From NCBI GenBank assembly GCA_965204745.1, contig OZ242010.1, positions 132,007-196,006 on the forward strand: 64,000 nucleotides of DNA, written 5' to 3'. Each line of letters begins with the position of its first letter. Position 1 is the stretch's first letter. Source of the stretch: Candidatus Latescibacterota bacterium (GTDB lineage: Bacteria > Latescibacterota > UBA2968). This document shows positions 10,690-56,078 of this stretch, piece by piece. The notes beneath the pieces are model-generated. The model saw only the letters and a program-made list of their open reading frames with translations. It did not search any database and was not told where the DNA came from. The position numbers and the translations under genes are program-made.

Positions 10690-11092
10690 AACGGAGCCAG
10701 TTGACATTTACGAGCCATGCACCGGCTTGAGCGGTTTATCGAGAAAATCAAGTCCTGACGTTCCGCAGTTCAAAGAAAGCATCCCAACAAGTGCCCTCGC
10801 AAAACCCCCTCCGATCAAGCCATCACGCACAGCGCGCAAGTCCGTTTCGCAACCAACGTCCATTATGCAACCCACTTTGCAGGCTGGCGCATATCGTTCT
10901 GTTACAAAAGCGATTTGCGCTGTGCAAGCCTCTCGGCGTTTGAGAGCGGCATTTTTTGCTTACTTTTTTTTGCTGTTGAAAAAAAGTAAGTCGCCGAAGG
11001 CATCGAAGGCAACAAACGAGGCTGTAGGACCAAACACATTAAATGAGCAAGCAACACATTTGTTAATCTGTGCGTAACGTCAAAATCCATTC
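10690..11092 (+). repeat. ~400-bp interspersed element, copy A. Its inverted partner is at 55610-56078. It contains a perfect 13-bp hairpin (cttactttttttt-gctgtt-aaaaaaagtaag).
   Basis: It aligns by eye to the reverse complement of 55610-56078 with frame-breaking indels and one nested 35-bp mini-element in copy B. The overlapping + ORF 10727-11077 is therefore not coding. Confidence 0.75.
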
Positions 11093-11096
11093 GCCT

Positions 11097-11186
11097 TTCA
11101 TCCGTGTTCATCCGTGTTCATCCGTGTTCATCCGTGTTCATCCGTGTTCATCCGTGTTCATCCGTGTTCATCCGTGTTCATCCGTG
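11097..11186. repeat. Perfect 10-mer tandem repeat (ttcatccgtg) x9
   Basis: Read directly. It overlaps the 3' end of the VOC gene, whose stop lies in the first unit. Confidence 0.9.
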
Positions 11187-11589
11187 GTTGCTTTTCGCCT
11201 CTCTCATGCTTGGCGAGTTCGATGAGGTTGCCATCGGGATCGTGGACGAAAACATAGCGCGTGCCATCGTGGGGGCGCACGCCCGGGCCTGATGCGACGC
11301 GCACGCGCGCTTGGTCGAGCGAGGTGATCACGCGGTCAAAATTGGCGACTTCAAAGGCGATGTGCCTGCGCGAGGGGCGGGGGTGTTCTTCGGCGACGAT
11401 CAGGTGAAGTTCGAGATCGCCGCAACGATACCACGCGCCTGCAAAATCGTAATCTGGCCGAGGGATGGGTTGCAGGCCCAAGAACTTTTCGTAAAACGCA
11501 GAAGCGCGTTCCAGATCGCCCGTCACCAATGTGATGTGGCTGACGTGTTCAATGCCTAGGCCAGTGGGCGCAGTCGGGCGGTTGGACAC
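11158..11589 (-). CDS. VOC/glyoxalase-family protein
   Basis: HVSHITLVTGDLERASAFYEKFLGL...HIAFEV...VFVHDPDGNLIEL is the glyoxalase/bleomycin-resistance fold pattern. Confidence 0.7.
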   Translation of the reverse strand: MSNRPTAPTGLGIEHVSHITLVTGDLERASAFYEKFLGLQPIPRPDYDFAGAWYRCGDLELHLIVAEEHPRPSRRHIAFEVANFDRVITSLDQARVRVASGPGVRPHDGTRYVFVHDPDGNLIELAKHERGEKQPRMNTDEHG

Positions 11590-11593
11590 CGGA

Positions 11594-12475
11594 TCAATTC
11601 TCCGTCAGAAGGGTTCTGATTTTCCGCATGCGTGCGGGATGCTTGAGGGCAGAGAGGGCTTTGTCGCGGATTTGGCGCACGCGCTCTTTGGTCAGGTTGA
11701 GGATGTTGCCGATTTGTTCGAGCGTCATGGTCTCGCCGCTGTTGATGCCAAAATACAGGCGCAAGACCCGGGCATCGCGCGGGGCCAACGTGTCGAGGGC
11801 CGTGTGGATTTCCTCGGCCATGGAATTTTCCATCAACACCTCTTCGGGCGTTTCCTGATTTTGGTCTGCCAACAGTTCCAGCATGTTGGTGTCCGGGCTG
11901 TCGTCGATGGGCTTGTCATAAGAAATGTGCCACCGAGACGCATTGAGCAGGTCTTGCACTTGACCGGGCTGCATGTCGGCGCGGGCCGCAATTTCATCGA
12001 CTTGCGGTTCTCTGCCCAACATCTGTTTGAGGTCCGCAGAGATGCGCTCCAATTTGCTCAGGTGTTTGATCTTGTTCACCGGCAAGCGCACCATGCGGGC
12101 TTTTTCTGCCAATGCGGACAAGATGCTCTGCCGAATCCACCACACGGCATAAGTGGTGAACTTGACGCCCACGGTTTCGTCGTAGCGAGTCGCCGCGCGC
12201 ACGAGCCCCATGTTGCCTTCGGCGATGAGGTCTTCCAAGGGCAGGCCGCGCCCCTGATACTCTTTGGCAATGGTGATGACGAATCGCAAATTGGATTCGA
12301 TCATTTTGTTCAGGCTTTGGCGGTCTCCGTTGCGGATGCGCTTGGCCAGGGCGACTTCTTCTTGTGGCGAGAGCAATTCGTTGCACGCGATGTCTTTGAG
12401 ATAGAGCTCAAATGCAGAACCCGTGCTACCATTTGTTCTGGGTGCGGTGTTGTAACTCATGAGTGCAGCAGGCAT
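11594..12475 (-). CDS. RNA polymerase sigma-70 family factor (RpoD/RpoS-like, regions 1.2-4)
   Basis: LYLKDIACNELLSPQEEVALAKRI, region 2 IESNLRFVITIAKEY...GNMGLVRAATRYD...FTTYAVWWIRQSI, and region 4 MTLEQIGNILNLTKERVRQIRDKAL. The start is placed at MPAAL/MSYN (12475/12460). A long AT-rich leader follows at 12590-12860. Confidence 0.85.
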   Translation of the reverse strand: MPAALMSYNTAPRTNGSTGSAFELYLKDIACNELLSPQEEVALAKRIRNGDRQSLNKMIESNLRFVITIAKEYQGRGLPLEDLIAEGNMGLVRAATRYDETVGVKFTTYAVWWIRQSILSALAEKARMVRLPVNKIKHLSKLERISADLKQMLGREPQVDEIAARADMQPGQVQDLLNASRWHISYDKPIDDSPDTNMLELLADQNQETPEEVLMENSMAEEIHTALDTLAPRDARVLRLYFGINSGETMTLEQIGNILNLTKERVRQIRDKALSALKHPARMRKIRTLLTEN

Positions 12476-12864
12476 ATATTTCCCCCGTGACTTGGAAAAC
12501 GACTCTCGGTCGCGTGTCTCGTCAACGGCACGCAAAAAAATGCGGATGCGATGACGCAATCCGACTTCGGTCGTTGCCAAAATAAACGCCCCTCGGTCAT
12601 GGGGAAACCAAGGCGTGGTTGTGTGACAACATTGGGATAAGGGGAGTGTTGCTTTGGGGAGTGATTTGGAGGAAGGAATCGATCACGAGCCGCAGGGGAG
12701 CGGTGTTTTCGACCAAACCAAAATGCGTGGGGCAAGTATTGAGGAAATACTTGGGCGCACAAGATAGGGGATTAAACTTTGAAACGCAACAATAATTTTC
12801 CCATTTTTTGCAAAAAATTGTCTGCATGTCAAAAAAAAACAACAAAAAGCACGAGTGCAAACGC

Positions 12865-15759
12865 TCAAGACTGCCCGTAATCCTGAACGAAAATCAAAAA
12901 ATCGCCAAAACCAATCTGTCCATCACCATCCAAATCGTATCGCACATCGTAGTTTGCATGCCCGGCCGCGTACCCGTAATGCGATGCGAACAAGAGGAAA
13001 TCCTGAAACCCCACGCTGCCATTGCCATCAAAATCGGTCCGCAACCCGGCCTGGCGCGCAAAGGTTAAGACCAGCGGCTCGGCAAACACCTCGAATTGTC
13101 CCGCCCGCCGGATGCGCGCCTGTCGCAACCGGATTTGACCCGCATCGGAGGCGCGAAAGCGGATGGTGCCGAGCCGTGCGGAGGGCTGCGCGATTTTTCC
13201 GCCGAATGACGCGGCCATCACTTCAACCGCCGAAGCATCGTTGGCCGGGTGATAAGGCCCTGGCGAGTGTCCATTGGGAATCCCCTCTCCAATGTCAAAT
13301 CCCTCGTAAGCCAACGCGGGCGCGTCAAAATCGAACAAGGCGCGAAAGCCGATGGCGTCTTTGACCTGCTGCCCGTGAATTTGCACGGCGATCACGCCAT
13401 CGGCGGGCAGGACATGCACGCCGTTATTTTTTTCTCCCTCTGTTGCGAGCGACAGCGCGAACCGCGTGCTTTGCGGCCGGTACCCGGTTCCGGAAACGCG
13501 AATGCCGACCGAAGGCGTTTGCGGGTCATTGCTGGATAGGGTCGCGCTGCCTTGCAGGTCGCCCGGTCTGCTGGGTTCAAAACGCAGGGTAAAAAAGCCG
13601 TTTCGCTTGGCGGGAATCGTCAATTGTTTCGGGATGGCCCCCACTTGATCATCGCTGGTGATAATGTCGGTAATGGACAGGGCCGCGTCTCCAAAATTCG
13701 TGACCGTGACGATCATCGACTTTGACGTACCGATCTCAACGCGCCCAAAATCGCGTGGGGACGTATCGACCGAGAGTTGCGGTGCCGGAGCGACGGGTTG
13801 TTGAACGCCTCGTGCGCGCAACCGCACGGTGGCCCGATCCGGCAAATTGCTCAAAATGGTCATTGCGCCGGATTTATCGCCCAGGCTTTGCGGCGAAAAA
13901 GTGACGAAAATTTGCCCGCTGCGCCCCGGTGGCACCGTGAGGGACGATTGCGAGAGGCCATAGTCTCGAGAGGGCAACAGGATGGTCGTTATGACCAAGG
14001 ACGCCTGACCGGGATTGACAATCCCCAGTTCGAGGGTTTGGGATTGCCCCAACAAGACCGCGCCAAAATCGAGTTCCGTGCGCGAAAGGTTCATGATGGG
14101 CGTGCCGATCAAAAGTGGAGACAACTCCAATCGCCCGGCGCCATAGACATTATCGGGGCCAGGAGTGCCCATATCCACCACAGATCGCATCAGCGCGTCC
14201 TTCAACCTCCGCGCATTGTAATGCACGGGGTTGGAAGATTTTAGGAGGGCCGCGGCCCCAGCGACATGGGGCGTTGCCGCGGATGTGCCGTAATAGCCCG
14301 AAGGGCCGTAGCTTCGCGTGAGAACCCCCGCAGGCGCGACCAAGTCGGGTTTGATTCGCCCATCAAACGTCGGGCCTTGAGAACTATACGATTCAATCGG
14401 CCCCGTCGCATAGTTGCGATGCCCCAACGCGCCCACAGTCAGCGCGCCACGCGCATCCCCCGGCGAAGTCAATGACCCCGCAATGGATATAGGCCCGTCG
14501 AGATCATGGGATGGGCTGATCAATTTGAAAAGGGTCACTTTGGCGTCCCTTGCCCGCCAAACCGCCAAGCCGTAAGTTCCCGGTTCCCGAATGGTATAAA
14601 CGAGCCACTCTAAGGGCGGCGAGTAAGATTGTTTGGTATCTGCACGCTCGACAACATCAGCACTGCCATCCGTCGCGATTTTTACGAGCAACAGATCGTA
14701 GTCGTGAGACGTGCGCGGCCATTCATTCCAGGTCAAGACTGCTTTTACTTCGTCTCCTACTTGCACATTTTTGAGGTTGACGATTTCATCGCCTCCATCA
14801 AAGTTGTGATACCCGTTGGCATCCGGGTCGCTTAACTGTGCCGAGATTTTTCTTTGCGCCTCATTCCCCGCTGCGTTCACCCACAAAACATTGTTCTGAA
14901 ACGCATCATCGGCAATTTCACACGCAATACCCGTTCCATCGCCAAACCCTCTCGCAAAATCCCATCCCAACGATACGGTGACAATATCGAGCCCCTCCTG
15001 AATTGCCGCGTCCTTGGCGTTTTCCAAACTGACCATATCATCCACCTTGTACAGATGAATTTCGGCATCCGGGGCAATGTCGTGAACGATTTCAGCGCAG
15101 GCCGATCCATGCACCATGGCATCTTCGGAAAGACTGCCGCGTTCAAAAATCCCTTCGCCCGTAAAATCCCGAGAAAACACCGCGGGCAATTCTCCTCGGT
15201 TTTGCAAGGATGGCACGTTGACAAAACCGATGTCAATGACCCCGACTTTTATGCCGCGCCCGGTAAAACCACTGCGCGAATAAACCGGTGCTTTGATGCG
15301 CTCTACACCCTCGCTGACGAGGAGTGGGCGCGGCTTGATGGGCAGTCGCACAAACTGCACACCCGCCACATGGGTCAACTTTTCGAGTGCGGATATGGGC
15401 GCGGACACTTTGACCAAATGCCGAGATTGGGCGACAATGCTGACGCCCAAATTGGATAACGCGCCAAAATCAATCCTTTCTGAAAGTTGCCCATCTCGCG
15501 GCTCCAATACGACTGTGATATTTTCGCCATCGCTATCTGCCGCGCCGTATTGTTTTGCCGTCGCCTTGGCCAGTGCGCGTTTTTGTGCCACCCAGTTCTT
15601 TTGAATCCGCGCCAGCACCCCTTCCAACTTCGGGGGATGATCGACCTTTTCGTACTCAAGTTGAGTCGCCTGCACGGAAGCGGTTAAACTCAGCGCAACA
15701 GCGTGCAAAAACAGGACGAGCACAGAGAGAACCCCGCGCCGAGAGGAACGAACCATCAC
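12865..15759 (-). CDS. Secreted S8 subtilisin-like serine peptidase. It has tandem ASH/Ig-like domains, a cohesin-like beta-sandwich and a C-terminal type-I dockerin.
   Basis: Signal peptide MMVRSSRRGVLSVLVLFLHAVALSLTASVQA. The catalytic triad context is VGVIDIG (D), HGSACAEIV (H) and GTSAATPHVAGAAALL (S). The C-terminus DFDGNGSVGFQDFLLFASHYG...YDLDGDGQIGFGDFLIFVQDYG is a duplicated Ca-loop dockerin. Confidence 0.85.
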   Translation of the reverse strand: MMVRSSRRGVLSVLVLFLHAVALSLTASVQATQLEYEKVDHPPKLEGVLARIQKNWVAQKRALAKATAKQYGAADSDGENITVVLEPRDGQLSERIDFGALSNLGVSIVAQSRHLVKVSAPISALEKLTHVAGVQFVRLPIKPRPLLVSEGVERIKAPVYSRSGFTGRGIKVGVIDIGFVNVPSLQNRGELPAVFSRDFTGEGIFERGSLSEDAMVHGSACAEIVHDIAPDAEIHLYKVDDMVSLENAKDAAIQEGLDIVTVSLGWDFARGFGDGTGIACEIADDAFQNNVLWVNAAGNEAQRKISAQLSDPDANGYHNFDGGDEIVNLKNVQVGDEVKAVLTWNEWPRTSHDYDLLLVKIATDGSADVVERADTKQSYSPPLEWLVYTIREPGTYGLAVWRARDAKVTLFKLISPSHDLDGPISIAGSLTSPGDARGALTVGALGHRNYATGPIESYSSQGPTFDGRIKPDLVAPAGVLTRSYGPSGYYGTSAATPHVAGAAALLKSSNPVHYNARRLKDALMRSVVDMGTPGPDNVYGAGRLELSPLLIGTPIMNLSRTELDFGAVLLGQSQTLELGIVNPGQASLVITTILLPSRDYGLSQSSLTVPPGRSGQIFVTFSPQSLGDKSGAMTILSNLPDRATVRLRARGVQQPVAPAPQLSVDTSPRDFGRVEIGTSKSMIVTVTNFGDAALSITDIITSDDQVGAIPKQLTIPAKRNGFFTLRFEPSRPGDLQGSATLSSNDPQTPSVGIRVSGTGYRPQSTRFALSLATEGEKNNGVHVLPADGVIAVQIHGQQVKDAIGFRALFDFDAPALAYEGFDIGEGIPNGHSPGPYHPANDASAVEVMAASFGGKIAQPSARLGTIRFRASDAGQIRLRQARIRRAGQFEVFAEPLVLTFARQAGLRTDFDGNGSVGFQDFLLFASHYGYAAGHANYDVRYDLDGDGQIGFGDFLIFVQDYGQS

Positions 15760-16890
15760 TCACTGTCCTTTGCCAAAATTTTCCGAAAAAATGAGGAAAT
15801 CATCGCCATCCACATCGCCATCATCGTCCAAATCACCCCTTAAGGAGGTGGTCGAACCGGCGTTGGATTGGGCAGAGTTGCTCGACCAAGTCGTGATACC
15901 CTGCGGGGACAGCGTGCGGACAATGCCATTGCCATCTAACGTGGCTGTCATGTCGGCAAGCAACCTTTCCCGGTTGTCCTGGATGCCGATATAGCCATTT
16001 TCGTTCGCGCCAACGATCCAAGCACCGAGGGTGCCATAGCGATTGCTCACTCTGATCAATCCATTATCGTTTGTATTTGATCCTGCTGTAATGAGTTCTG
16101 TGCCCGTTTCGGACTTGAGTCTCAATACACCTCGCCCCTCGCCACTCCATCCCAAATAAGCAATTTGCTGGTCGTTGTTATTGTATAGATCCACATTGCC
16201 TGCGGTCTCATCTGCATACATGGACGCCAACCTTTTTCCCGATGCGTTCCTCAGACTCAACAGTCCATTGCCCCGAGTACTTGCCCCAAGATACGCCAAA
16301 TTTTCACTTTCATTGTTGATGTGTATCGCGGGGGTTTCATCCGCGCCCAGACTAATCAAATGCACGCCATTTTTGTTTTTTACGTTGATCAATCCATCGC
16401 CTGACTCAACATCTGATCCCAAAGCAATGAGATTATTTTCTTCTGTTGTATTGATCAACACATGTCCATTGCCATTTGAAGCACTCGATCCAATATAAAC
16501 CAGTTGCCTGCCTTCCGCAGAATTGACAAAAATAAGGCCCCCGCCCACGGTACTAGGCCACAATTCAACGACTGCTTGCCCGGTGCTGTTCACAATCTGC
16601 AATCCGCTCGTGCGAATCGGCCCCTGCGTTTGCGCCGTTGCTTTTCCCGATCTCTGTGCGGCTGGATGCCTTGTAGCGGGCCTGTCTTCGGTTGGCGCGT
16701 TGGGGATTTCAAAATCGGCTTTGGGCTTTGGAATAGGCGCGAGGAATGAGCCGATCCGCAATGGCGAAATGCCCTCTGTTGAGGCAACCGAGATCATTGC
16801 CAGCAACAGAAAACACAACAAGATGTTGAAATTGCGGTAGCGCGCAACGCGCGTTTCCAATTTGCCCAAACGCTCTTCAACTGAATTCAT
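15760..16890 (-). CDS. Membrane-anchored or secreted beta-repeat protein (~20-aa G-rich repeats, NHL/beta-propeller-like) ending in a single dockerin-like Ca-loop
   Basis: N-terminal hydrophobic segment ILLCFLLLAMISVAST. About 12 repeats of the type GNGxLxLxNxxGxxLxxLGADET. C-terminal DLDDDGDVDGDDFLIFSENFG. The start is at MNSVEERLG (16890). The stop abuts the subtilase start with no spacer. Confidence 0.6.
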   Translation of the reverse strand: MNSVEERLGKLETRVARYRNFNILLCFLLLAMISVASTEGISPLRIGSFLAPIPKPKADFEIPNAPTEDRPATRHPAAQRSGKATAQTQGPIRTSGLQIVNSTGQAVVELWPSTVGGGLIFVNSAEGRQLVYIGSSASNGNGHVLINTTEENNLIALGSDVESGDGLINVKNKNGVHLISLGADETPAIHINNESENLAYLGASTRGNGLLSLRNASGKRLASMYADETAGNVDLYNNNDQQIAYLGWSGEGRGVLRLKSETGTELITAGSNTNDNGLIRVSNRYGTLGAWIVGANENGYIGIQDNRERLLADMTATLDGNGIVRTLSPQGITTWSSNSAQSNAGSTTSLRGDLDDDGDVDGDDFLIFSENFGKGQ

Positions 16891-17001
16891 AATGCTTTCT
16901 CCTGTGTTGAGGTGGTGAACATCGAACAAACGCATAGCGGGTCGGTACTCGGGCGAGTACCGACCCGCTCTCATTGGGATTCCATACAGATCGGCTCTGG
17001 A

Positions 17002-17511
17002 TTATTTGAAATACAAACCCGCAAGCCCCAACAACATCACGATAAAAATGCCGACAAGCCATTGCCGCGTCGCTCGCAATTCCCGGAACTGATTGTCCAT
17101 ATCCCGTTTCAAGTCATCAAATCGCTTATCGACATCTCGTTTCAAGTCGTTAAACCGGTTGTTCATATCATCGAACCGGTTGTTCATGCTCTCTTTCAAA
17201 TCCTCGAACCGCTTATCGACACTTTCAAACCTGCTGTTCATCTCCTGTTTCAGGTCACCGAACCGCTTGTCCATGTCGCGTTTCAGGTCATCGAACCGGT
17301 TGTCCATGTCGCGTTTCAAGTCATCGAACCGGTTGTTCATATCCTCAAACCGGTTGTTTGAACTCTCTTTCAAATCCTCAAACCGCTTGTCCATTTGGTC
17401 GAGAAAACCGCCCAAATAGCCCTGCTGTTTCTGCGTTTCGCTTTGAAAAAACTTTGCCCAATTTTCAAACCCATTTGACGATTTCCGTTCTTTTGGGGTG
17501 CTCATGGTCAT
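17002..17511 (-). CDS. Tail-anchored hendecad-repeat protein (12 x 11-aa DxRFDDLKRDM units plus a C-terminal TM helix)
   Basis: The SD 'AAAGGAG' precedes ATGACCATG at 17511. The repeat NRFDDLKRDMD/KRFEDLKESMN is encoded by a 33-bp tandem array (17090-17400). The C-terminal WLVGIFIVMLLGLAGLYFK is a TM segment. Confidence 0.55.
   Translation of the reverse strand: MTMSTPKERKSSNGFENWAKFFQSETQKQQGYLGGFLDQMDKRFEDLKESSNNRFEDMNNRFDDLKRDMDNRFDDLKRDMDKRFGDLKQEMNSRFESVDKRFEDLKESMNNRFDDMNNRFNDLKRDVDKRFDDLKRDMDNQFRELRATRQWLVGIFIVMLLGLAGLYFK
17090..17400. repeat. 33-bp in-frame tandem repeat (about 9-10 units) encoding the hendecad repeats
   Basis: Read directly; e.g. 'catatcccgtttcaagtcatcaaatcgcttatcga' is reiterated. 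Confidence 0.7.
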
Positions 17512-17787
17512 CTCCTTTCGCAAAGCCAACACAACTGTCCATAACATAATAGCCAATTTTGGTTTTTTTTCAAGGAGAAATATCGTGCTATCGGCAATCA
17601 GTACAGATAGAGCGAAAAAAGGCACTGGATTCCGACCCCTGCTTTATGCTTTTGTCAGAATGACGGTGGGCGAGTGTTTTACGTACTGAATAACACCATT
17701 GCCTCACGTCTTGTATCTTTGGGCGAGCACGGGGGCGTTGCCCCGTTCCGTCTATTCGCTTGACTTCAATGCGGTCAAACAATAGGT

Positions 17788-19581
17788 TTGAACCGCAAAA
17801 TAATGCCCCTCAAATCCCATCGCGTTATGACCTTTATCAAACAAATCTACGACCTGCTCGAGGGCCGCCGCCTTTTTATGGCCTGTTCGATTGCCTGCGG
17901 ATTGATCTTTGCAGCGGCCAATTTGATTCCGCCATTGCTCATCCGCAAACTCATCCAGTGGCTCACCGAGGCGCAACCCGTTGGGGACCTCGTGTGGATC
18001 AGCATCCTGCTCTTTGGGGTTTATGTGTTGCGCGGCGTCTCGCGGTATGGGTATGGCTTTTTTTCCCACGTCACGGCGTACCGCGTGATGCACGCCTTGA
18101 TGACGCGGGTGTACGCGCATCTGCAAAATTTGTCCCACAGCTTTTTTAATCGGCAACGCACCGGCAATTTGATGGCGCGGTCTATCAATGACATCGAAGC
18201 CATTGAGGATTTTATCGCGCACGGCATCCCGGAAACCGCACTCGCTACGGTCATTCCCATCTCCATGATCACCGTGCTCTTTTACCTCAATCCGGAACTC
18301 GCGCTCATCGCCATTTTGCCCATACCGCTCGCGGCGTTTCTCGTGTACCGCTACGTGTCCAAAGTGCGTGCGATGTGGCAGGCGGTGCGCGAGCGGCTTT
18401 CCGAACTCGCGGCATTGGTGCAAGACAATTTGTCGGGCATTGCGGTGATCAAATCCTTTGCCCGAGAGCGCGAATGCGCGCGGCATGTGGCCGACCGCAG
18501 CGCGAAATTTCACGACCGCTTGATCGAGGCCAACACGATCTCGCTCTTGCCGGCCGGAATTATCGAAGCCACAGGTGGATTGGGCATTGTGTGCGTGATA
18601 TGGAGCGGGGGCAACATGGCCCTCGACGACCGCATTTCGGTGGCGGATTTGTTCGTGTTCATCGTTTATATGGCGCATATCTACCAGCCGTTTTTGCAGT
18701 TGGCGTCTTTTAATGACGTGCTTCAAAAAGCCGCTGTGAGCACCAACCGGGTTTTTCAACTGCTCGCTGTGCGCCCGGAAATTACGGACGCGCCGCACGT
18801 TGTCGCGCCCAAGGCTATCGCTTGGGATGTTCACCTCGACGGACTCACCTTTGGCTACGACCCCGCAGTACCCGTGTTGCACGACATCGACATTTACATC
18901 GGCGAAGGGGAAATCCTCGCGTTGGTCGGCCCCACGGGCGCGGGCAAATCCACGGTTGCCAATCTCTTGCCCCGGTTTTACGACCCACAGCGCGGCGCGG
19001 TTCGCATCGGCGGGCATGACCTGCGCGACATGCCCATCGCGTTTGTGCGCGAAAACATCGCTTCGGTCTTGCAAGACGTGTTTCTGTTTCACGGCACGGT
19101 CTATGAAAATCTGATCTTTGGCCGCCCGGATGCGTCCGAGCGTGCGGTGCGAGAAGCCGCCAATGCCGCCAATGCCCATGCGTTTATCCGCGACTTGCCT
19201 CGTGGCTACGACACGGTGATCGGGGAACGCGGCGTACGCCTGTCTGGCGGTCAAAAACAGCGGCTCTCCATTGCCCGCGCCCTCCTCAAGGACGCGCCCA
19301 TCCTCATCTTGGACGAAGCCACATCCTCTGTCGATGTCGAAACCGAGGCCCTGATTCAAGAAGCCCTTTCCCGGCTCACGCAAAACCGCACCACCCTCGT
19401 CATTGCCCATCGTCTTTCCACCGTGCGCCGCGCCCACGCCATTGTGGTGCTCGACGAAGGCCGCATAGTCGAAACCGGGAACCACGATACCCTCATCGCC
19501 CGCGAGGGACTCTACGCGCGCATGGTTCGGGCACAAGACCTCACGCGAGACGGGGATTTCCTTCCGCATGTTGCGGATTGA
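17788..19581 (+). CDS. ABC exporter, fused permease plus ATP-binding domains (MsbA/type-I exporter-like)
   Basis: Six-TM N-terminal half. The NBD has GPTGAGKST (Walker A), LSGGQKQRLSIARAL (signature) and ILILDEATSSVD (Walker B). There is no C39 peptidase domain. Confidence 0.85.
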   Translation: MNRKIMPLKSHRVMTFIKQIYDLLEGRRLFMACSIACGLIFAAANLIPPLLIRKLIQWLTEAQPVGDLVWISILLFGVYVLRGVSRYGYGFFSHVTAYRVMHALMTRVYAHLQNLSHSFFNRQRTGNLMARSINDIEAIEDFIAHGIPETALATVIPISMITVLFYLNPELALIAILPIPLAAFLVYRYVSKVRAMWQAVRERLSELAALVQDNLSGIAVIKSFARERECARHVADRSAKFHDRLIEANTISLLPAGIIEATGGLGIVCVIWSGGNMALDDRISVADLFVFIVYMAHIYQPFLQLASFNDVLQKAAVSTNRVFQLLAVRPEITDAPHVVAPKAIAWDVHLDGLTFGYDPAVPVLHDIDIYIGEGEILALVGPTGAGKSTVANLLPRFYDPQRGAVRIGGHDLRDMPIAFVRENIASVLQDVFLFHGTVYENLIFGRPDASERAVREAANAANAHAFIRDLPRGYDTVIGERGVRLSGGQKQRLSIARALLKDAPILILDEATSSVDVETEALIQEALSRLTQNRTTLVIAHRLSTVRRAHAIVVLDEGRIVETGNHDTLIAREGLYARMVRAQDLTRDGDFLPHVAD

Positions 19582-19676
19582 GGGGTCAGTCCCCGCACCG
19601 TGCCTAAGCGAGACGTGAGATGAGATTTTAGCCACGAGCGGGGTACAACTGGCGATAACCCGTTCAAAAACGAGCA

Positions 19677-19996
19677 GTGTGTAGGTCTTCTCCCGTCTTG
19701 CCTCTCACCTCTCACCTTTTTAGGCGATGCCTCCGTGCCTCGCCCAAAGATACAAGAGGATTTGGGGCCGGTGGGCCTCTCCCTCTCCCCTCTGCCCTCT
19801 TGCGTCTCACTTGCGGGCGGCGGACGGGCGGGTGGGCCTCTCCCCTCTGCCCTCTTACGTCTCACTTGCAGGAGGTGGACGGGCGGGTGGGTGGGCCTCT
19901 CCCTCTCCCCTCTGCCCTCTTACGTCTCACTTTCGGGAGGCGGACAGGCGGGGCGGACTGACAACTGACAACTGACAACTGACAACTGACAACTGA
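19677..19996. repeat. Composite repeat: ~60-bp tandem unit x3 (ggcctctcccctctgccctcttgcgtctcacttgcgggcggcggacgggcgggtg), then (GACAACT) x6 heptamers directly abutting IS left end
   Basis: Read directly. The + ORFs 19677/19727/19735 are its three reading frames. Confidence 0.8.
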
Positions 19997-20986
19997 CAAT
20001 GCGAATTAAGAGTTGAATCCATCGCGTACTTGTCTTTTTTTGAGGGCTCAATCATTTCACCCTTAAAGGAAGGAGCACGCGATGGATTGGCAAGATAAAC
20101 TCATTCACTTGTATGTCTATATTTGTCAGCAGTATGACCAAAAGCATCTGTGGTTTTATACGGAACGCATGAGTAATAACGACACGCCGACCTTCACAGA
20201 TGAAGAAGTGCTGACGATCTATTTGTTTGGGATCATGCAACAACACACGCAGATCAAGGCGATTTATACCTATACCAAGGATCATTTGTTCGACTGGTTT
20301 CCCAATCTGCCCACTTATGCAGGCTATATCCAGCGGTTGAACCGCTTGTGTGTGGTCTTCGCCCCATTGATTGAACAAATCCAAAAGGATAGTCCCGCAA
20401 CCGATGTCTCTGAACACACCTACTTGGTGGATTCCATGCCGATTGTCATGGCACAATCGGCACGTAGCGGAAAGGCATGTGTGGCTGAAGAACAACGGGC
20501 CAACAAAGGCCGCTGCGCTTCCAAAAAGATGTGGTATTACGGCACCAAACTGCACATGGTCGCACAAGACCGCGAGAATGGCCTCCCGAAAGCAGAGTAC
20601 TTCGGCTTGACAGGCGCAGCAGAGCATGACCTGACTGCTTTGCGACACGTCTTACCCGTTTTGCGTGATGGACACCTCTACGGCGATAAACTCTACGCCG
20701 ATCAGCCCTTAAAAGACACGCTTAGCAAACAGCAGAACCTGATCTTCGAGACGCCGGTGAAGCGAAAAAAGGGGCAAGAAAGCCTGACCGAGGCCGAAAA
20801 AGACTTTTCTCGGGCGGTTTCGAGCATGCGACAGCCTATAGAGGCCTTGTTCAGTTGGATTGAACGAAAGACGAACATCTCGATGGCGTCTCGGGTACGA
20901 TCCTATGAGGGCTTACTCGTTCATGTCTTTGGGCGATTGACCGCGGCTTGCTTCTTACTCGCTTTCTACTCTTAATTCGCATTGTT
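19995..20986 (+). mobile_element. IS982-family insertion sequence (~990 bp) with 18-bp terminal inverted repeats acaatgcgaattaagagt
   Basis: IRL at 19995-20013 and IRR at 20968-20986 are perfect reverse complements. The element has a single DDE transposase ORF. No clean target duplication is visible. Confidence 0.8.
20082..20975 (+). CDS. IS982-family DDE transposase (297 aa)
   Basis: It has the size and organisation of IS982 transposases. The conserved D...D...E spacing is implied by VDSMPI...LHMV...YADQP. The gene ends inside IRR. Confidence 0.75.
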   Translation: MDWQDKLIHLYVYICQQYDQKHLWFYTERMSNNDTPTFTDEEVLTIYLFGIMQQHTQIKAIYTYTKDHLFDWFPNLPTYAGYIQRLNRLCVVFAPLIEQIQKDSPATDVSEHTYLVDSMPIVMAQSARSGKACVAEEQRANKGRCASKKMWYYGTKLHMVAQDRENGLPKAEYFGLTGAAEHDLTALRHVLPVLRDGHLYGDKLYADQPLKDTLSKQQNLIFETPVKRKKGQESLTEAEKDFSRAVSSMRQPIEALFSWIERKTNISMASRVRSYEGLLVHVFGRLTAACFLLAFYS

Positions 20987-23921
20987 GACTACTTGCTATG
21001 CTCAACGTGACGATGAACTCAAGGGACGAGGAACCGCTCCCCTCGGTCACACTCGGAGAATCAATACTCAGCGTCGGCGGGTCATCATCATCGGTTAGCG
21101 TCAAATTCGCGTTGACCAAACTGCCCACGCCTTGATCGTTGCTTGCCACACCGGACACGGTCACGGCGCGATTAACCTCGTATTGACCGTTGTCCACCGC
21201 CGTGATCGCTACCGTGTCCGACGCGTTCGTCGTGTCCCCAGCCGCGATGGCAATCGTCGAATCCTGACCCACCGTGTAGGCACCGGTCACCGGGCGCACC
21301 GTGATCGTGGTCGCCTCACTCGACGGACGCGAGAGCGTCGCGCTCACCGTCGAAACACCGCCAGCCTCCGAGATGGACGAGGGCGACAGCATCAGCGTCA
21401 CATCCGGCGCGGCGTCATCGTCTGTGATCGTCAGGGCCCCGGAAGCCATCGATGCCACATCGTCGCCTGCCACCGTGCCAGACACGCCTAAGCGCTTGTC
21501 CGGTGCATCGGTCGTGTTGTTCACCGCCGTGATGACCACCGTGTCCGACGCGTTCGTCGTGTCCCCAGCCGCAATGGTGATCGTCGAATCCTGATCCACC
21601 GTGTAAGCACCGGTCACCGGCCGCACCGTGATTGTTGTCGCATCCCTCGATAGATGCGACAGCTTCGCGCTCACCGTCGCAACACCACCAGCCTCAGAAA
21701 TCGACGTGGGCGACAGTGCCAATGTCACCGTCGGTTTATCCAGCGCGATGCCATTTGGCGTAGTCAATCCTGTGGTGATGAGGTCTTCGACATTCGAGCC
21801 ATCGAGGTCGGCACGCAGAATCTTATCCGTGCTCCAGTCCGTCCAGTACATCTTTCCGCCCCCCACATCCAGCGCGATGTCAATTGGCGAACTCAATCCT
21901 GTGGTGATGAGGTCTTCGACATTGGAGCCATCGAGGTCGGCACGCTGAATCTTACCCGGGCTCTCTTCCGTCCAGTACATCTTGCCGCGTCCCACATCCA
22001 GCGCGATGCCAACTGGCGTATTCAATCCTGTGGTGATGAGGTCTTCGACATTCGAGCCATCGAGGTCGGCACGCTGAATCTTATCCGTGCCATAGTCCGT
22101 CCAGTACATCTTTCCGCCCCCCACATCCAGCGCGATGCCATATGGTTCTCTCAATCCTGTGGTGATGAGGTCTTCGACATTGGAGCCATCGAGGTCGGCA
22201 CGCTGAATCTTATCCGTGCCAGTGTCCATCCAGTACATCTTTCCGCCCCCCACATCCAGCGCGATGCCAGATGGATTCCTCAATCCTGATGCGCTGGTGA
22301 TGAGGTCTTCGACATTGGAGCCATCGAGGTCGGCACGCTGAATCTTACGTGCGTCATAGTCCGTCCAGTACATCTTGCCGCGGCCCACATCCAGCGCGAT
22401 GCCAACTGGCGTATTCAATCCTGTGGTGATGAGGTCTTCGACATTGGAGCCATCAATGTTGACACGCTGAATCTTATCCGTGCCATAGTCCGTCCAGTAC
22501 ATCTTGGGCGCGTCATCGTCTTCCAGCGTCAAAGCCGCACCGGTCACACGGCCCACGCCTTGATCGTTGCGTGCCACACCGGACACGGTCACGGCGCGAG
22601 TAACCTCGTATTGACCGTTGTCCACCGCCGTGATCGCTACCGTGTCCGACGCGTTCGTCGTGTCCCCAGCCGCGATGGTGATCGTCGAATCCGACCCCAC
22701 CGTGTAGGCATTGGCCACGGGGCGCACCGTGATCGTGGTCGCCTCACTCGACGGACGCGAGAGCACCGCGCTCACCGTCGAGACACCGCCAGCCTCCGAG
22801 ATGGACGAGGGCGACAGCATCAGCGTCACGGTAGGCGAGGCGTCATCGTCCTCCAGCGTCAATGCCGCACCGAGCACACTGACCGTGTCATCGCTTGCCA
22901 CACCGAACACGGTCACACGCTTACTCGGCGCATCGGTCGTGTTGTTCACCGCCGTGATGACCACCGTGTCCGACGCGTTCGTCGTGTCCCCAGCCGCAAT
23001 GGTGATCGTCGAATCCGACCCCACCGTGTAAGCACCGGTCACCGGGCGCACCGTGATTGTTGTCGCCGCCGCCAACCGATGCGACAGCTTCGCGCTCACC
23101 GTCGCAACACCACCAGCCTCAGAAATCGACGTGGGCGACAGTGCCAATGTCACCGTCGGTTTATCCAGCGCGATGCCAAATGGCGTAGTCAATCCTGTGG
23201 TGATGAGGTCTTCGACATTGGAGCCATCGAGGTCGGCACGCTGAATCTTATCCGTGAGCTGGTCCACCCAGTACATCTTTCCGCCCCCCACATCCAGTGC
23301 GATGCCCTGTGGCCTCCTCAATCCTGATGCTCTGGTGATGAGGTCTTCGACATTGGAGCCATCGAGGTCGGCACGCTGAATCTTACCCGGGCTCTCTTCC
23401 GTCCAGTACATCTTTCCGCCCCCCACATCCAGCGCGATGCCAACTGGAAAACTCAATCCTGTGGTGATGAGGTCTTCGACATTGGAGCCATCGAGGTCGG
23501 CACGCTGAATCTTAAACGTGTTGCTGTCTGTCCAGTACATCTTTCCGCCCCCCACATCCAGCGCGATGTGTGGCGTAATCAATCCTCTGATGAGGTCTTC
23601 GACATTGGAGCCATCGAGGTCGGCACGCCGAATACGACCTCCGAGAAGGTCCGTCCAGTACATCTTTCCGCCCCCCACATCCAGCGCGAGGCCCCGTGGA
23701 TTCGTCAATCCTGTGGTGATGAGGTCTTCGACATTGGAGCCATCCAAGTTGGCACGCTGAATCTTATCCGTGCCATAGTCCGTCCAGTACATCTTGAGCG
23801 TGTCGCCCCCGCTGCTCACCAGTGGTGTCGTCTGCGCTGTCGCGGGGGCGATCAGCAAGGGCATGACCAACACGGCGATCCATGTTGGAAGGGACAGAAA
23901 ACGGGGATAATGGGATGTCAT
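20955..23921 (-). CDS. Secreted YWTD (LDL-receptor class B) beta-propeller plus Calx-beta protein, C-terminally truncated or replaced by the IS982 insertion
   Basis: Signal peptide MTSHYPRFLSLPTWIAVLVMPLLIAPATAQ. There are 2 x 6 YWTD blades (KMYWTDYGTDKIQRADLDGSNVEDLITTGL...) and about 7 Calx-beta-like units (ISEAGGVSTVSA...ITAVDN). The last 10 codons (QCELRVESE*) are IS terminal sequence. Confidence 0.75.
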   Translation of the reverse strand: MTSHYPRFLSLPTWIAVLVMPLLIAPATAQTTPLVSSGGDTLKMYWTDYGTDKIQRANLDGSNVEDLITTGLTNPRGLALDVGGGKMYWTDLLGGRIRRADLDGSNVEDLIRGLITPHIALDVGGGKMYWTDSNTFKIQRADLDGSNVEDLITTGLSFPVGIALDVGGGKMYWTEESPGKIQRADLDGSNVEDLITRASGLRRPQGIALDVGGGKMYWVDQLTDKIQRADLDGSNVEDLITTGLTTPFGIALDKPTVTLALSPTSISEAGGVATVSAKLSHRLAAATTITVRPVTGAYTVGSDSTITIAAGDTTNASDTVVITAVNNTTDAPSKRVTVFGVASDDTVSVLGAALTLEDDDASPTVTLMLSPSSISEAGGVSTVSAVLSRPSSEATTITVRPVANAYTVGSDSTITIAAGDTTNASDTVAITAVDNGQYEVTRAVTVSGVARNDQGVGRVTGAALTLEDDDAPKMYWTDYGTDKIQRVNIDGSNVEDLITTGLNTPVGIALDVGRGKMYWTDYDARKIQRADLDGSNVEDLITSASGLRNPSGIALDVGGGKMYWMDTGTDKIQRADLDGSNVEDLITTGLREPYGIALDVGGGKMYWTDYGTDKIQRADLDGSNVEDLITTGLNTPVGIALDVGRGKMYWTEESPGKIQRADLDGSNVEDLITTGLSSPIDIALDVGGGKMYWTDWSTDKILRADLDGSNVEDLITTGLTTPNGIALDKPTVTLALSPTSISEAGGVATVSAKLSHLSRDATTITVRPVTGAYTVDQDSTITIAAGDTTNASDTVVITAVNNTTDAPDKRLGVSGTVAGDDVASMASGALTITDDDAAPDVTLMLSPSSISEAGGVSTVSATLSRPSSEATTITVRPVTGAYTVGQDSTIAIAAGDTTNASDTVAITAVDNGQYEVNRAVTVSGVASNDQGVGSLVNANLTLTDDDDPPTLSIDSPSVTEGSGSSSLEFIVTLSIASSQQCELRVESE

Positions 23922-23949
23922 TTTATTTTTCTCTCGGGGAAGGGAATCG

Positions 23950-24360
23950 CGTTATTATTTGGCAAGTGGTAAAATAACGATGGGGTCGATGGTCAGTCAA
24001 GCAATAAGGACAGGCACAGGGGCCTGTCCCTACGGATGATGAGGCGGGGGATGCGAGGGGGACCTACCCCCTGGCCCCCTTCCTGCGAGGAAGGGGGAAT
24101 GGCGAGAGGTTGTGCGAGGGATTGTGTGTAAGGGTTTTTGGATTTGCATGGCGTGATCCATTCGCCCAAAGCCATCAAAACAGCCAGGGATGCAAACCTT
24201 TAAGAAAGCCATGCGCTCCCCCTTTCCTCGTAGGCACAGGCGTAACCTACAATGAGCGAAGCGAATAACGGGGGCCGGGGGGATAGGTCCTGCGGTTGGG
24301 CGGTGTGGGGTAATCCGCGCAATCCCCTAATCCGTTTAATCCGCGATTCAGACACGGCCG
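23950..24360. repeat. Mosaic REP/MITE-like intergenic repeat block R1 (hairpins ggacaggcacaggggcctgtcc and gtaggcacaggcgtaacctac). It is homologous to 51560-51930.
   Basis: By-eye alignment with 51470-51960, 25440-25560 and 58860-59175. Small ORFs across it (24030-24212) recur with the repeat and so are not genes. Confidence 0.7.
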
Positions 24361-24396
24361 GGTGGCGCGGTTGGGTCGTGGGTAATCAAAATCGCG

Positions 24397-25374
24397 TCAC
24401 GCCTCCGCATCCAATGCGCGCTGAAATTCACCCAGATCCGCGACTTGCACTGCCGAGCGATGCAACTGCTTGAGGCGTTGCAAATCTTCGATGGTCCGAA
24501 GGCGACCTGCGACCTGATCGGCCACGGCAGGATCAAAGCGAATCTCCAGCACGTCGAGAATCGCGTCCATGGTATGTTCCCTACCCCCTCGCTCGATACC
24601 CTGCTCAATGCCCTGCTCGATGCCCTGCTCGATGCCCTGCTCGATGCCCTGCTCAATGCCCTGCTCAATAAACTGTTCCTTGAAGTGCTCCTTGAGGTAT
24701 TGGGCAAACGATGATTCACGCATAATCGCGTCCATAAAACCCTCCTGAGAAAGAATTCGGTTGATGGTGGTCGGCTCATAAGCCAAACCACTCATGACCG
24801 CCAAGCCACCCAAAAAGTCGATCTTGCTTGAATGATCCAAGGGCATCACATCGGTCTTGCGGATACACTGACGCAACCATGCCTCTGAATCCACCCCCAC
24901 AGGAGGTCTCATCAACGGCGCGAAGGGAAGCAAGCCCGCCTGACCCCCTTCAAGAATGCTTTGCCCATCCATCTCACTCAGCCGAATCACCTTGTATTCC
25001 ACATAGATGAAATGGCCGGGAAGTTCTTGCGTGTAGCATCCTGGATCGTGCCGCCCGGCATTGCGCCGCAAGTAGATCACACAGGAATAGACCGGCAGGC
25101 CATACTGCGCGATAATGTAACCCATGTAATTGATCATGCGGCGATTCATCGGGGTGCCCGTGCTGTCGGCGGTTTGAAATTCCGTGTGAACCAAGGCCTC
25201 CTGACCGCCAATCCGCACGCGAATCAGATTATCGCTCCGGCGCATTTCAACGGTGGGTTGTTCGGTTTCGAGCAGACCGTCAACTTCCACGTCAACTCGT
25301 CCGAGAATGAATTGGACGAGGTCGTCTGGATAGTTTTGAATCAGGTGTTTGGAAATTGTATCGTACTCGGCCAT
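24397..25374 (-). CDS. Rpn/YhgA-like PD-(D/E)XK recombination-promoting nuclease (transposase_31 family) with C-terminal DUF4351-like tail and an internal (IEQG)n repeat
   Basis: N-terminal MAEYDTISKHLIQNYPDDLVQF...IRVRIGGQEALVHTEFQ (PD-(D/E)XK core). C-terminal ILDVLEIRFDPAVADQVAGRLRTIEDLQRLKQLHRSA. A paralogous copy is at 53698-54630. Confidence 0.75.
   Translation of the reverse strand: MAEYDTISKHLIQNYPDDLVQFILGRVDVEVDGLLETEQPTVEMRRSDNLIRVRIGGQEALVHTEFQTADSTGTPMNRRMINYMGYIIAQYGLPVYSCVIYLRRNAGRHDPGCYTQELPGHFIYVEYKVIRLSEMDGQSILEGGQAGLLPFAPLMRPPVGVDSEAWLRQCIRKTDVMPLDHSSKIDFLGGLAVMSGLAYEPTTINRILSQEGFMDAIMRESSFAQYLKEHFKEQFIEQGIEQGIEQGIEQGIEQGIEQGIERGGREHTMDAILDVLEIRFDPAVADQVAGRLRTIEDLQRLKQLHRSAVQVADLGEFQRALDAEA
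24590..24672. repeat. In-frame 12-bp coding microsatellite (ctgctcgatgcc / ctgctcaatgcc) x~7, encoding (IEQG)n in Rpn copy 1. Copy 2 has only about 3.5 units (53890-53935).
   Basis: Read directly in both paralogs. Confidence 0.85.
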
Positions 25375-25439
25375 GTGAATCCTCCGAAATAAAATCATAC
25401 CCATTCGATTTCAAAGCGAAAAAAAATAAAGAATCACGC

Positions 25440-25700: not shown

Positions 25701-25783
25701 GAGAAGACCTACACTCACTGCTCGCCTTTGGACTGGCTACCGCCAGTTGTATCCCGCTCGTGGTGAAACGCCTATCTTCCCAC

Positions 25784-26785: not shown

Positions 26786-26897
26786 GGCGTGTCCTCAAGT
26801 GCGTGTCCATCCTCGCTTCCACCCCGCCGTGTGCGTTATCCCGGCCCATATTCCCCGACCTCTTGCCTCTCACGTCTTGCCTTTCACGTCTTGCCTC

Positions 26898-53664: not shown

Positions 53665-53697
53665 CCCCGCCCCGCTTCCCTTCATCGGAAAATCGCG

Positions 53698-54630
53698 TCA
53701 CGCCTCCGCGTCCAATTCGCGCTGAAATTCACCCAGATCCGAGACTTGCACTGCCGAGCGATGCAACTGCTTGAGGCGTTGCAAATCTTCGATAGCTCGA
53801 ATGCAACCTGCGACCTGATCGGCCCCGGCAGGATCAAAGCGAATCTCCAGCACGTCGAGAATCGCGTCCATGGTATGTTCCCTACCCCCTCGCTCAATGC
53901 CCTGCTCAATGCCCTGCTCAATGCCCTGCTCAATAAACTGTTCCTTGAAGTGTTCCTTGAGGTATTGGGCAAACGATGATTCACGCATAATCGCGTCCAT
54001 AAAACCCTCCTGAGAAATGATACGCTTGATGGTGTTCGACTCATAAGCCAAGCCACTCATGACCGCCAAGCCACCCAAAAAGTTGATCTTGCTTGAATGA
54101 TCCAAGGGCATCGCATCGGTCTTGCGGATACACTGACGCAACCATGCCTCTGAATCCACCCCCACAGGAGGTTTCATCAACGGCGCGAAAGGAAGCAAGC
54201 CCGCCTGACCCCCTTCAAGAATGCTTTGCCCATCCACCTCACTCAGCCGAATCACCTTGTATTCCACAAAGATGAAATGGCCGGGAAGTTCTTGCGTGTA
54301 GCATCCTGGATCGTGCCGCCCGGCATTGCGCCGCAAGTAGATCACACAGGAATAGACCGGCAGGCCATACTGCGCGATAATGTAACCCATGTAATTGATC
54401 ATGCGGCGATTCATCGGGGTGCCCGTGCTGTCGGTGGTTTGAAATTCCGTGTGAACCAAGGCCTCCTGACCGTCAAGGCGCACGCGAATCAGATTATCGC
54501 TTCGACGCAGGTGGGTTGTTCGGTTTCGAGCAGACCGTCAACTTCCACATCAACTCGTCCGAGGATGAATTGGACGAGGTCGGCTGGATAGTTTTGAATC
54601 AGGTTTGGAAATTGTATCGTACTCGGCCAT
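53698..54630 (-). pseudogene. Rpn/YhgA-like PD-(D/E)XK gene, copy 2, disrupted by at least two frameshifting deletions near the 5' end
   Basis: ~90% nt identity to 24397-25374. A ~7-nt deletion at ~54505 and a 2-nt deletion at ~54606 relative to copy 1 split the N-terminus (MAEYDTISK) into ORF 54550-54756, out of frame with the body ORF 53698-54483. Confidence 0.65.
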
Positions 54631-54703
54631 GTGAATTCTCCTAAATAAAGTCACTTCAGGGCATCTGAAGTAACGGGTCAATGCCACTGGTTGGACGAAT
54701 AAA

Positions 54704-55606
54704 TCACTTCCCCAAGACCGCGTTGACGACGCCATGGTTTTCTTTGAGCAATGCACGGGCCGTTTCTATGGAGACGGCCCGTTTTGTCATGACGAGGGCG
54801 GTTTTGAGGTCGCCCTGTGCGAGGGCGAGGGCGCGGCGACTTTCTTCTGGCGTTAAGTCCGCGACGAGGCCCAAAATGCGTTGGGCGCGGTCCGCGAGTT
54901 TGTCGCAGGTGGGTGCGAGATCGACCATCAGGTTTTCATAGACCTTGCCCATGCGGATCATCGCGGTCGTGGTGATCATGTTGAGGACGAGTTTGGTCGC
55001 TGTGCCCGCTTTCATGCGCGTGGATCCGGCGATGACTTCCGGGCCGACGACCGGGGCGATAACGACATTTGCACACACCTCTCGATTGGGATTGCAAGTG
55101 AAAAACACGGTCTTCGCGCCGATGCGATAGGCGTAGTCGAGCGCGCCGAGCACAAAGGGCGTAACCCCACTCGCGGCAATGCCCATCACGACATCATCAG
55201 CGGAACAGGCGCGGGCTTCAAGGGCGGCTCGTCCGGCTTCGGGCTGGTCTTCCGCGCCTTCTTGGGATCGGGTCAACGCGGGTGTGCCGCCTGCGATGAT
55301 GCCGTGTACCAGGTCGGGTTGTACCCCATAAGTCGGCGGGCATTCAGCCGCGTCGAGCACGCCGAGGCGCCCGCTTGTGCCCGCGCCCACGTAAAAGAGC
55401 CGCCCGCCCTTTTGAAATGCTTTGACCACGAGATCCACGGCTTTGGCTATGTCGCCTATCGCGCCTTCAACCGCATGGGCGACTTTTTGGTCTTCGGCAT
55501 TGATGATCCGAAGTGCATCCGCAGTCGAACACCGGTCGATGTAGGTGCTGTTGGGATTGCGCTGCTCCGTGAGCAACCCCGCCCATTTTGAGATTGGATT
55601 ATTCAT
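54704..55606 (-). CDS. murQ: N-acetylmuramic acid 6-phosphate etherase (MurQ), SIS domain
   Basis: LLTEQRNPNSTYID...GGRLFYVGAGTSGRLGVLDAAECPPTYGV and the C-terminal MurQ signature ...ALV.TK. An alternative TTG start is at 55615. Confidence 0.85.
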   Translation of the reverse strand: MNNPISKWAGLLTEQRNPNSTYIDRCSTADALRIINAEDQKVAHAVEGAIGDIAKAVDLVVKAFQKGGRLFYVGAGTSGRLGVLDAAECPPTYGVQPDLVHGIIAGGTPALTRSQEGAEDQPEAGRAALEARACSADDVVMGIAASGVTPFVLGALDYAYRIGAKTVFFTCNPNREVCANVVIAPVVGPEVIAGSTRMKAGTATKLVLNMITTTAMIRMGKVYENLMVDLAPTCDKLADRAQRILGLVADLTPEESRRALALAQGDLKTALVMTKRAVSIETARALLKENHGVVNAVLGK

Positions 55607-55609
55607 GAA

Positions 55610-56078
55610 ATGCAACCACAGATAAACGCGGAGAGAAAGTTGAAGTATCCACTTTTTTTATCCATCAGAAGGAATCACAATTTTGGCGATTGTGAGCCAA
55701 TAACCAATGTGTTGCTTGCTCATTTAAGGCGTTTGGTCCTACAGCCTCGTTGGTTGCCTCCGATGCCTTCGGCGACCTACTTTTTTTCAACAGCAAAAAA
55801 AGTAGGCGAGCGGGGTACAACTGCCCCAGCAGTTCAAAAATGCCGCTCTCAAACGCCGAGGGGCTTGCACAGCGCAAAGCGCTTTTGTAACAGAACGATA
55901 TGCGCCAGCCTGCAAAGTGGGTTGCATAATGGACGTTGGTTGCCAATGGACTTGCGCGCTGTGCGTGATGGCTTGATCGGAGGAGTTTTGCGAGGGCACT
56001 TGTTGGGATGCCTTCTTTGAACTGCGGAACGTCAGGGCTTGATTTTCTCGATAAACCGCTCAAGCCCTACGGGTGATG
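55610..56078 (-). repeat. ~430-bp interspersed element, copy B (inverted relative to copy A at 10690-11092), carrying a nested 35-bp mini-element insertion
   Basis: The reverse complement aligns to copy A. The insertion 'gaactgctggggcagttgtaccccgctcgcc' interrupts the 13-bp hairpin region. Confidence 0.75.

Follow-up and report, generated by a model that had tools for sequence, protein, structure and literature searches.

A probable non-autonomous, non-coding MITE-like repeat family in Candidatus Latescibacterota, with two inverted copies in a 64-kb window

Introduction

A repeat of a few hundred nucleotides occurs twice, in opposite orientation and 45 kb apart, in a 64-kb stretch of a Candidatus Latescibacterota genome (the window; coordinates are window positions unless another sequence is named). 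The question raised by the two copies, A and B, is whether they delimit one mobile or invertible block, represent a duplicated gene for a protein or an RNA, or arrived separately. The comparisons reported here make it probable that A and B are independent insertions of a lineage-restricted, non-autonomous, non-coding family of ~350-525 bp that resembles miniature inverted-repeat transposable elements (MITEs) and is moved in trans by a transposase encoded elsewhere. The opposite orientations of the two copies are incidental, and the 45-kb interval is not a unit. Judged from the sequence comparison, copy B splits a UPF0182-murQ gene pair that ancestrally abutted.

Insertion sites and distribution

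Strong homology between the copies covers ~10722-11067 and 56071-55700 and is followed by a weaker stretch to ~11107 and 55662 in the alignments. A repeat search of the window resolved it into four collinear arm pairs of 85, 45, 111 and 122 nt (Table 1). Identity within the aligned blocks is ~94-97%; by blastn, A and B are 89% identical across 368 nt with gaps counted, and the alignment contains two 1-nt indels, one 27-nt block and an altered T-run length. The preliminary description was thus correct in reporting an inverted pair with frame-breaking indels, and the limits it gave (10690-11092 and 55610-56078) were slightly too wide. No third copy was found in the 64-kb window by the repeat search or with an nhmmer profile (--max), which was also used for the element searches in other genomes. 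Copy A lies in the spacer between convergent GFO/IDH/MocA oxidoreductase and glyoxalase genes, and copy B lies between UPF0182, whose stop codon is at 56095, and murQ, whose start codon is at 55606.

Relatives were represented by 25 loci (L numbers) retrieved with the 911-aa UPF0182 protein encoded beside copy B, all labelled as Candidatus Latescibacterota or uncultured Latescibacteria metagenome-assembled genomes (MAGs). Same-species strains (L001, L037, L038, L043-L050 and L051) and further samples of the genomes of the two closest relatives (L039-L042) were obtained by exact-protein look-up. Strain L037 is 98.95% identical to the window over 19.8 kb (11202-30997, matching L037 1121-20894) and 96.7% identical over 9705-10659 (matching L037 1-961), and the 542 nt between these matches (10660-11201), copy A included, give way in this strain to 160 nt of unrelated repeat modules. 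At site B, the distance from the UPF0182 stop codon to the murQ start codon is 0-30 nt in ~20 relatives versus 488 nt in the window, where copy B lies between.

The clearest insertion sites are in two relatives. The spacer upstream of the NFACT gene is orthologous in L034 and L040 and holds an element copy in both; the two copies were inserted at different positions and point in opposite directions, so that each locus provides an empty site for comparison with the other. TATACCAAATTGA...TCAAATTGGTAT delimit the L034a copy, with GAGATGAATT on either side; L040 has this flanking sequence only once, as GCGGTGAATTTACAG. Likewise, ATTCTGTAAATT...AATTTACAGAGT delimit the L040 copy, with AGTCAAT on either side, and this flanking sequence occurs a single time in L034, as GGTTGAT. 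The target site duplications (TSDs) are 7 bp in L040 and ~10 bp in L034a, and none is visible at L034b or at a further copy, C. The terminal inverted repeats (TIRs) are of an L012 type (ATTCTGTAAATTAAATAATTAC / ACTCTGTAAATCAAATGATACC) and an L034 type (TATACCAAATTGA / TCAAATTGGTAT); L012a and L040 have imperfect TIRs of ~20 bp in common, and the 12-13 bp TIRs of L034a and L034b are equivalent to the inner portion of the L012-type TIRs. Inverted ends together with TSDs and orthologous empty sites are marks of transposition.

Presence of the element varies among strains and relatives. Copy A has orthologues in strains L044, L045 and L046 and is absent from L037 and L043; copy B has orthologues in L001, L038 and L051 and is missing from relatives. 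Two other copies were found in the same species, copy C between a GFO-like gene and PPK2 (L046 13622-13978) and copy D upstream of HSP20 (L043 2518-2920). Three copies were found in OZ251458.1 (L012a, L012b and L040) and two in OY282377.1 (L034a and L034b), and fragments comprising different parts of the element stand alone in L013, L039 and L043. This gives nine distinct full copies and three fragments in ~210 kb of non-redundant sequence (the three genomes with full copies plus L013), a sample biased towards known copies, and the copy number may be tens to low hundreds per genome. Short-read contigs L047, L049 and L051 terminate within the element, as expected of a multi-copy repeat. Only four copies lie in informative positions, between co-directional genes (three co-oriented, one anti-oriented), and no orientation bias is therefore claimed.

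The element was found in this species and in the three nearest relatives sampled, at non-orthologous intergenic sites, and no copy was present in ~450 kb from ~20 relatives with UPF0182 proteins ≤86% identical; the family is therefore considered to be confined to a narrow clade. An exact 22-mer scan of the GTDB representative genomes, among which this species is not included, gave no matches, and neither did a gapped core pattern in viral contigs. A search by blastn returned nothing from plasmids and one 57-nt A/T-rich chance match from phages. The 10 matches from a 20-mer scan of JGI metagenomes were rejected, all being unrelated coding sequence with just 20-24 nt in common. Exact look-up of the murQ product for more strains at site B returned no record. 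Tandem repeats of ~92 nt occur upstream of UPF0182 in the window (58868-59062), where the L012 spacer has an element copy instead.

Structure of the element

The element is described from an alignment of 12 copies from three species, which have in common a core of ~230 nt; the 5' and 3' modules outside the core vary by subfamily, and copy D has ~95 nt inserted between its 5' module and the core. The core contains, in order, GCCATC-like motifs, the near-invariant GCACAGCGCGCAAG, TTGCAACCCAC..GCAGGC, CAAAAGCG.TTTGCGCTGTG, the weak hairpin with its T-run, the A/T hairpin, and finally GTCGCCGAAGGCATC..AGGCAAC...CCAAAC. The 9-mer GCGCTGTGC, within CAAAAGCG.TTTGCGCTGTG, is the inverted complement of GCACAGCGC. 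Eleven of the 12 aligned copies carry both 9-mers unaltered, the exception being B_L038 with GCACAGCGT, and so do the six sequences used for RNAalifold; the 9-mers, being nearly invariant, provide little evidence for or against their pairing.

Variation in the terminator-like hairpin falls in the loop and an internal mismatch, except in A_L044, where the 3' arm is GAGAGTGCCC. The A/T hairpin of copy A, noted earlier as a perfect 13-bp hairpin, was recovered with 12 Watson-Crick pairs and one G-U pair; a single pairing-preserving double change is common to L012a and L013. In the copy A orthologue of L044 (11560-11640), the 5' part of copy A is replaced and the A/T hairpin is swapped for another perfect hairpin, CTTTTTTGCTT/AAGCAAAAAAG. 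From its sequence, the replacement appears to be an inverted copy of the neighboring T-run, a templated change; since templated inverted copying mimics covariation, it was not counted as RNA evidence.

The flanks of copy A are themselves repetitive. The TGACGTTACGCA motifs around it have a TIR-like arrangement, with the left arm beyond the stretch common to A, B and D. The TTCATCCGTG array has nine units in the window versus five to six in strains L044-L046, and read-through of the array lengthens the glyoxalase open reading frame (ORF) by 13 codons relative to L037 and L043. The site-A spacer and other spacers are rich in further short repeat families.

The unit nested in copy B was first reported as a 35-bp insert resembling a repetitive extragenic palindrome (REP), placed exactly at the hairpin. 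Its membership in a REP-like family holds, its length is 27-29 nt, and it lies between the T-run and the left hairpin arm; the same insert is present in copies D, L040, L034a and L034b. Four further copies of the family (consensus CTCGCCTTTGAACTGGCTGTCGCCAGTTGTACCCCGCTCG) occur in the window versus 0.33 expected by chance. The nested units resemble one another more than they do the free copies and are therefore regarded as an old subfamily marker and not as a recent hit on B. The family is also present in L012, L025, L034 and L037, often beside short tandem repeats of the CCTTTTGTG or CTTGCCTCTCAC type.

Table 1. Coordinates of the element copies, their parts and associated repeats in the window
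Feature	Position	Strand	Description
Copy A	10722..11086	+	Homology with copies B and D starts at ~10722
3' end motif of copy A, CTGTGCGTAACGTCAAAAT	11068-11086	+	Fainter similarity to other copies continues to ~11107
Copy B	55680..56071	-	Fainter similarity continues to ~55662
Arm pair 1	10724-10808 / 55982-56066		Inverted, 96% identity
Arm pair 2	10802-10846 / 55945-55989		Inverted, 93% identity
Arm pair 3	10846-10956 / 55836-55946		Inverted, 97% identity
Arm pair 4	10965-11086 / 55680-55801		Inverted, 87% identity
5' part of conserved core	10778..10826	+	Four spaced GCCATC-like motifs, clearer in relatives' copies (alignments)
Central core	10827..10925	+	Flanked by inverted 9-mers GCACAGCGC (10827-10835) and GCGCTGTGC (10917-10925)
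Weak terminator-like hairpin (GCC.CTC / GAG.GGC) and six-T run	10928..10957	+	Terminator scan match at 10930-10946, plus T-run
Long A/T hairpin, CTTACTTTTTTTT / GCTGTT / GAAAAAAAGTAAG	10959..10990	+	-10.2 kcal/mol, z = -3.9
Motif TGACGTTACGCA	10671..10682	+	Direct repeat at 10756-10767 (TGACGTTCCGCA), inverted repeat at 11071-11082
Site-A spacer differing from L037	10660..11201	.	Upstream motif block, copy A, 10-nt tandem array, end motif
Tandem array (TTCATCCGTG) x 9	11097..11186	+	Abuts copy A; unit number strain-variable
REP-like hairpin unit, 27-29 nt	55808..55836	-	Nested in copy B between T-run and A/T hairpin
Free REP-like copies	19638-19651, 25744-25757, 28253-28266, 28310-28323	-, +, -, -	Family unit ~45 nt
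Motif ATCYGTGGTTGCWTTTC	55607-55623, 58844-58860, 11180-11196	-, -, +	See Neighboring features

Alternative explanations

A gene for a conserved small protein was considered and rejected. The ORFs across the copies (116 aa and 132 aa) are alike only at their ends because of the indels between A and B, every long ORF is broken by the 1-nt indels, and the joined sense and antisense translations of both copies had no match among 5.8 billion protein clusters, which include proteins from relatives' genomes that carry the element; the earlier view that these ORFs are not proteins is upheld. A diversity-generating retroelement template/variable pair was also rejected: 7 of the ~13 A/B substitutions have an A in copy A, but the others are not at A, copy B lies outside coding regions, and no reverse transcriptase was seen. 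It is rather unlikely that the ~230-nt core represents a gene for a small or cis-regulatory RNA, duplicated or carried along and conserved for its RNA function, with the terminator-like hairpin as its 3' end. Such a gene would fit the long invariant or near-invariant blocks kept in 12 copies from three species while the ends diverge, the hairpin and T-run, the A/T pairing kept through the double change in L012a and L013, and the copies that fold better than shuffled sequences (sense z = -3.5 for L012a and -3.2 for L012b). However, no Rfam match at the gathering score was obtained for the whole window, and at E < 10 only chance-level matches appeared on A, B and L040. RNAalifold on six copies, a small sample for this purpose, gave 54 pairs, 5 with a double change in at least one sequence, but the covariation term was +1.03 and most stems were invariant. 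Folding of whole copies was unremarkable (z = -0.7 for A and -2.6 for B), and the core z-scores of nine copies were inconsistent and no better in the sense (+0.3 to -3.5) than in the antisense (+0.5 to -4.65), with -0.7 for window copy A and +0.3 for L034b in the sense and -4.65 for window copy B in the antisense. The terminator-like hairpin is weak (-8.6 kcal/mol, z = -1.0), no sigma-70-like promoter site was found inside copy A or B by a promoter scan, and the replacement of the hairpin in L044 resembles templated inverted copying, a covariation mimic that requires no selection. The structured RNA gene proposed earlier thus gains no positive support.

Spread of the copies as a mosaic of short intergenic modules, by homologous recombination or gene conversion between spacers in the manner of bacterial interspersed mosaic elements (BIMEs), would explain why the 542-nt site-A spacer is exchanged for a different 160-nt module set in L037, why the 5' and 3' modules differ between subfamilies and D has its ~95-nt insert, why fragments of different parts stand alone in three loci, and why other short repeat families abound in the same spacers. 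The two insertions in relatives with sharp ends, TIRs, and TSDs that are single-copy at the orthologous empty site carry the signature of transposition instead, and a mosaic origin is considered improbable. That the inverted pair delimits a 45-kb accessory block able to invert or insert, as the preliminary description had suggested, can practically be discounted. The copies are inverted, accessory genes lie between them (an insertion sequence [IS], a giant repeat protein and proteases), and inverted repeats of ~350 nt could in principle allow inversion by homologous recombination. However, L037 is collinear with the window across 11202-30997 although it lacks copy A, and L034, L013 and L014 keep the UPF0182-murQ-ClpX-like-NFACT order without copy B and without the giant gene. 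In the 5.28-Mb same-species genome ERZ25068394, the A-bearing segment maps to ~0.47 Mb and the B-bearing one to ~5.18 Mb, a separation of ~0.56 Mb, and the orientation of the copies relative to each other is that of the window. The strain-specific junction within the interval coincides with the IS at 19996-20985 and not with the element, and no recombinase was seen next to either copy. Neither boundary depends for its occurrence on the other or on the intervening content.

Neighboring features

The IS at 19996-20985 is 990 bp long with 22-bp TIRs and encodes a DDE_Tnp_1 transposase. Past 19887, strains L044-L048 have FtsX and HSDR_N genes instead, and the two halves of the window are ~0.55 Mb apart in ERZ25068394. 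A giant ORF (30554-51370; 6938 aa, and 7972 aa in L038) is built of ~345-nt repeat units; L034, L040, L013 and L014 lack it between the ClpX-like and NFACT genes, and in L034 and L040 that spacer holds an element copy. A direct repeat of ~1 kb with 95% identity (24388-25397 and 53689-54653) carries a 335-aa ORF, which is reduced to 261 aa in the second copy by a frameshift near its start. This ORF belongs to a family of >2000 homologues that matches no Pfam or NCBIfam model and of which individual Latescibacterota or Gemmatimonadota MAGs encode several paralogues; positions 53856-54704 of the window are absent from L034. An AAA ATPase and a DUF4435 protein encoded at 3232-5204 match the AriA/AriB (PARIS) defence models. 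This pair is missing from L045, where uvrB abuts a galE/galT fusion gene. The motif ATCYGTGGTTGCWTTTC directly precedes the murQ start codon and lies ~14 nt ahead of the start codon of UPF0182, is also found before murQ in L034 and L013, and may be a shared 5' leader or promoter-proximal motif.

Discussion

Among the possibilities raised in the preliminary description, a MITE is the one supported, at the level of the family: the copies are small (350-525 bp), non-coding, dispersed and insertion-polymorphic, and the relatives' copies have TIRs and TSDs. In the mechanism proposed for this MITE-like family, a transposase encoded elsewhere in the genome would recognise the terminal repeats and integrate the element through a staggered cut. 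After insertion, the conserved core would supply a weak terminator-like hairpin with its T-run and the long A/T hairpin. At site B, the hairpin and T-run, which are in the operon sense, would tend to end UPF0182 transcripts before murQ and so uncouple the two genes, to the extent that so weak a hairpin can.

Several observations weigh against transposition as a MITE. The window copies have no clean TIR, A having only the 12-nt inverted motif with its left arm outside the region shared with B, and B having a weak match, and neither copy has a readable TSD. The comparison at site A shows replacement of the entire spacer and not a simple filling, and the nearest relatives have different inserts at site B. 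Subfamilies differ in their ends, and the TSDs are unequal in length; more than one mobilising enzyme, or another mechanism, may act. In the 12-copy alignment the interior is better conserved than the ends, an uncommon pattern among MITEs. The 842 kb of sequence examined contained no autonomous element with matching ends, and the IS of the window was rejected as the mobilising partner, its TIR (ACAATGCGAATTAAGAGTTGAA) being unrelated to the element ends. Two unbiased 21-kb samples from element-bearing genomes had no copy, and the copy number may therefore be in the tens rather than the hundreds.

The conservation of the interior also admits a bolder and unlikely proposal, that the ~230-nt core (GCCATC motifs, GCACAGCGC...GCGCTGTGC, the hairpins and GGACCAAAC) is functional cargo, acting as a mobile terminator or insulator, a protein-binding module or a small RNA. 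If this were true, selection would be keeping the core near-unchanged across three species while at least three sets of transposon ends spread it to further intergenic sites and so rewire operons, UPF0182-murQ among them.

A full-text literature search found no paper linking Latescibacteria with MITEs, and the family would be the first MITE-like repeat family described for an uncultivated phylum. For annotation, gene callers should disregard ORFs across the copies, and the element explains the breaks in short-read assemblies at these points in these genomes. The comparison also shows a conserved UPF0182-murQ junction split by a hairpin-bearing element, and it removes a false lead, namely the 45-kb interval as an island bounded by the pair.

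Among known systems, the omega-RNA/HEARO of IS200/IS605 provide a lead only, the likeness being a non-coding segment of a few hundred nt linked to mobility; unlike them, the element has no Rfam match, has TIRs and TSDs, and has no adjacent tnpB or iscB gene. IS200/IS605 elements are not known to make either TIRs or TSDs. The mosaics of short repeat modules in the spacers resemble the BIMEs and REP/REPIN sequences of proteobacteria, as does the nested imperfect palindrome with its five copies in 64 kb. REP and BIME units are 20-40-nt imperfect palindromes, a description that fits only the nested 27-29-nt unit; unlike a REP, the main element is ~10 times longer and is not itself a palindrome. 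No REP-associated tyrosine transposase (RAYT) turned up, although no search aimed at RAYT was made.

The closest counterparts are the bacterial MITEs Correia/CREE (Neisseria), ERIC/IRU (enterobacteria) and RUP (Streptococcus pneumoniae), which are ~100-160 bp long; the TSD of Correia and RUP is TA. Like these, the element is short, non-coding, intergenic, dispersed and insertion-polymorphic between strains, has no transposase of its own, has TIRs and TSDs in the relatives' copies, and has internal hairpins that could act on transcripts. It is larger than these (350-525 versus ~100-160 bp), with no sequence similarity to them found or expected, and its TSDs of 7 and ~10 bp differ from the TA of Correia and RUP. 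It differs further in its subfamily-specific ends around a best-conserved interior, the feature likely to be of most interest to specialists.

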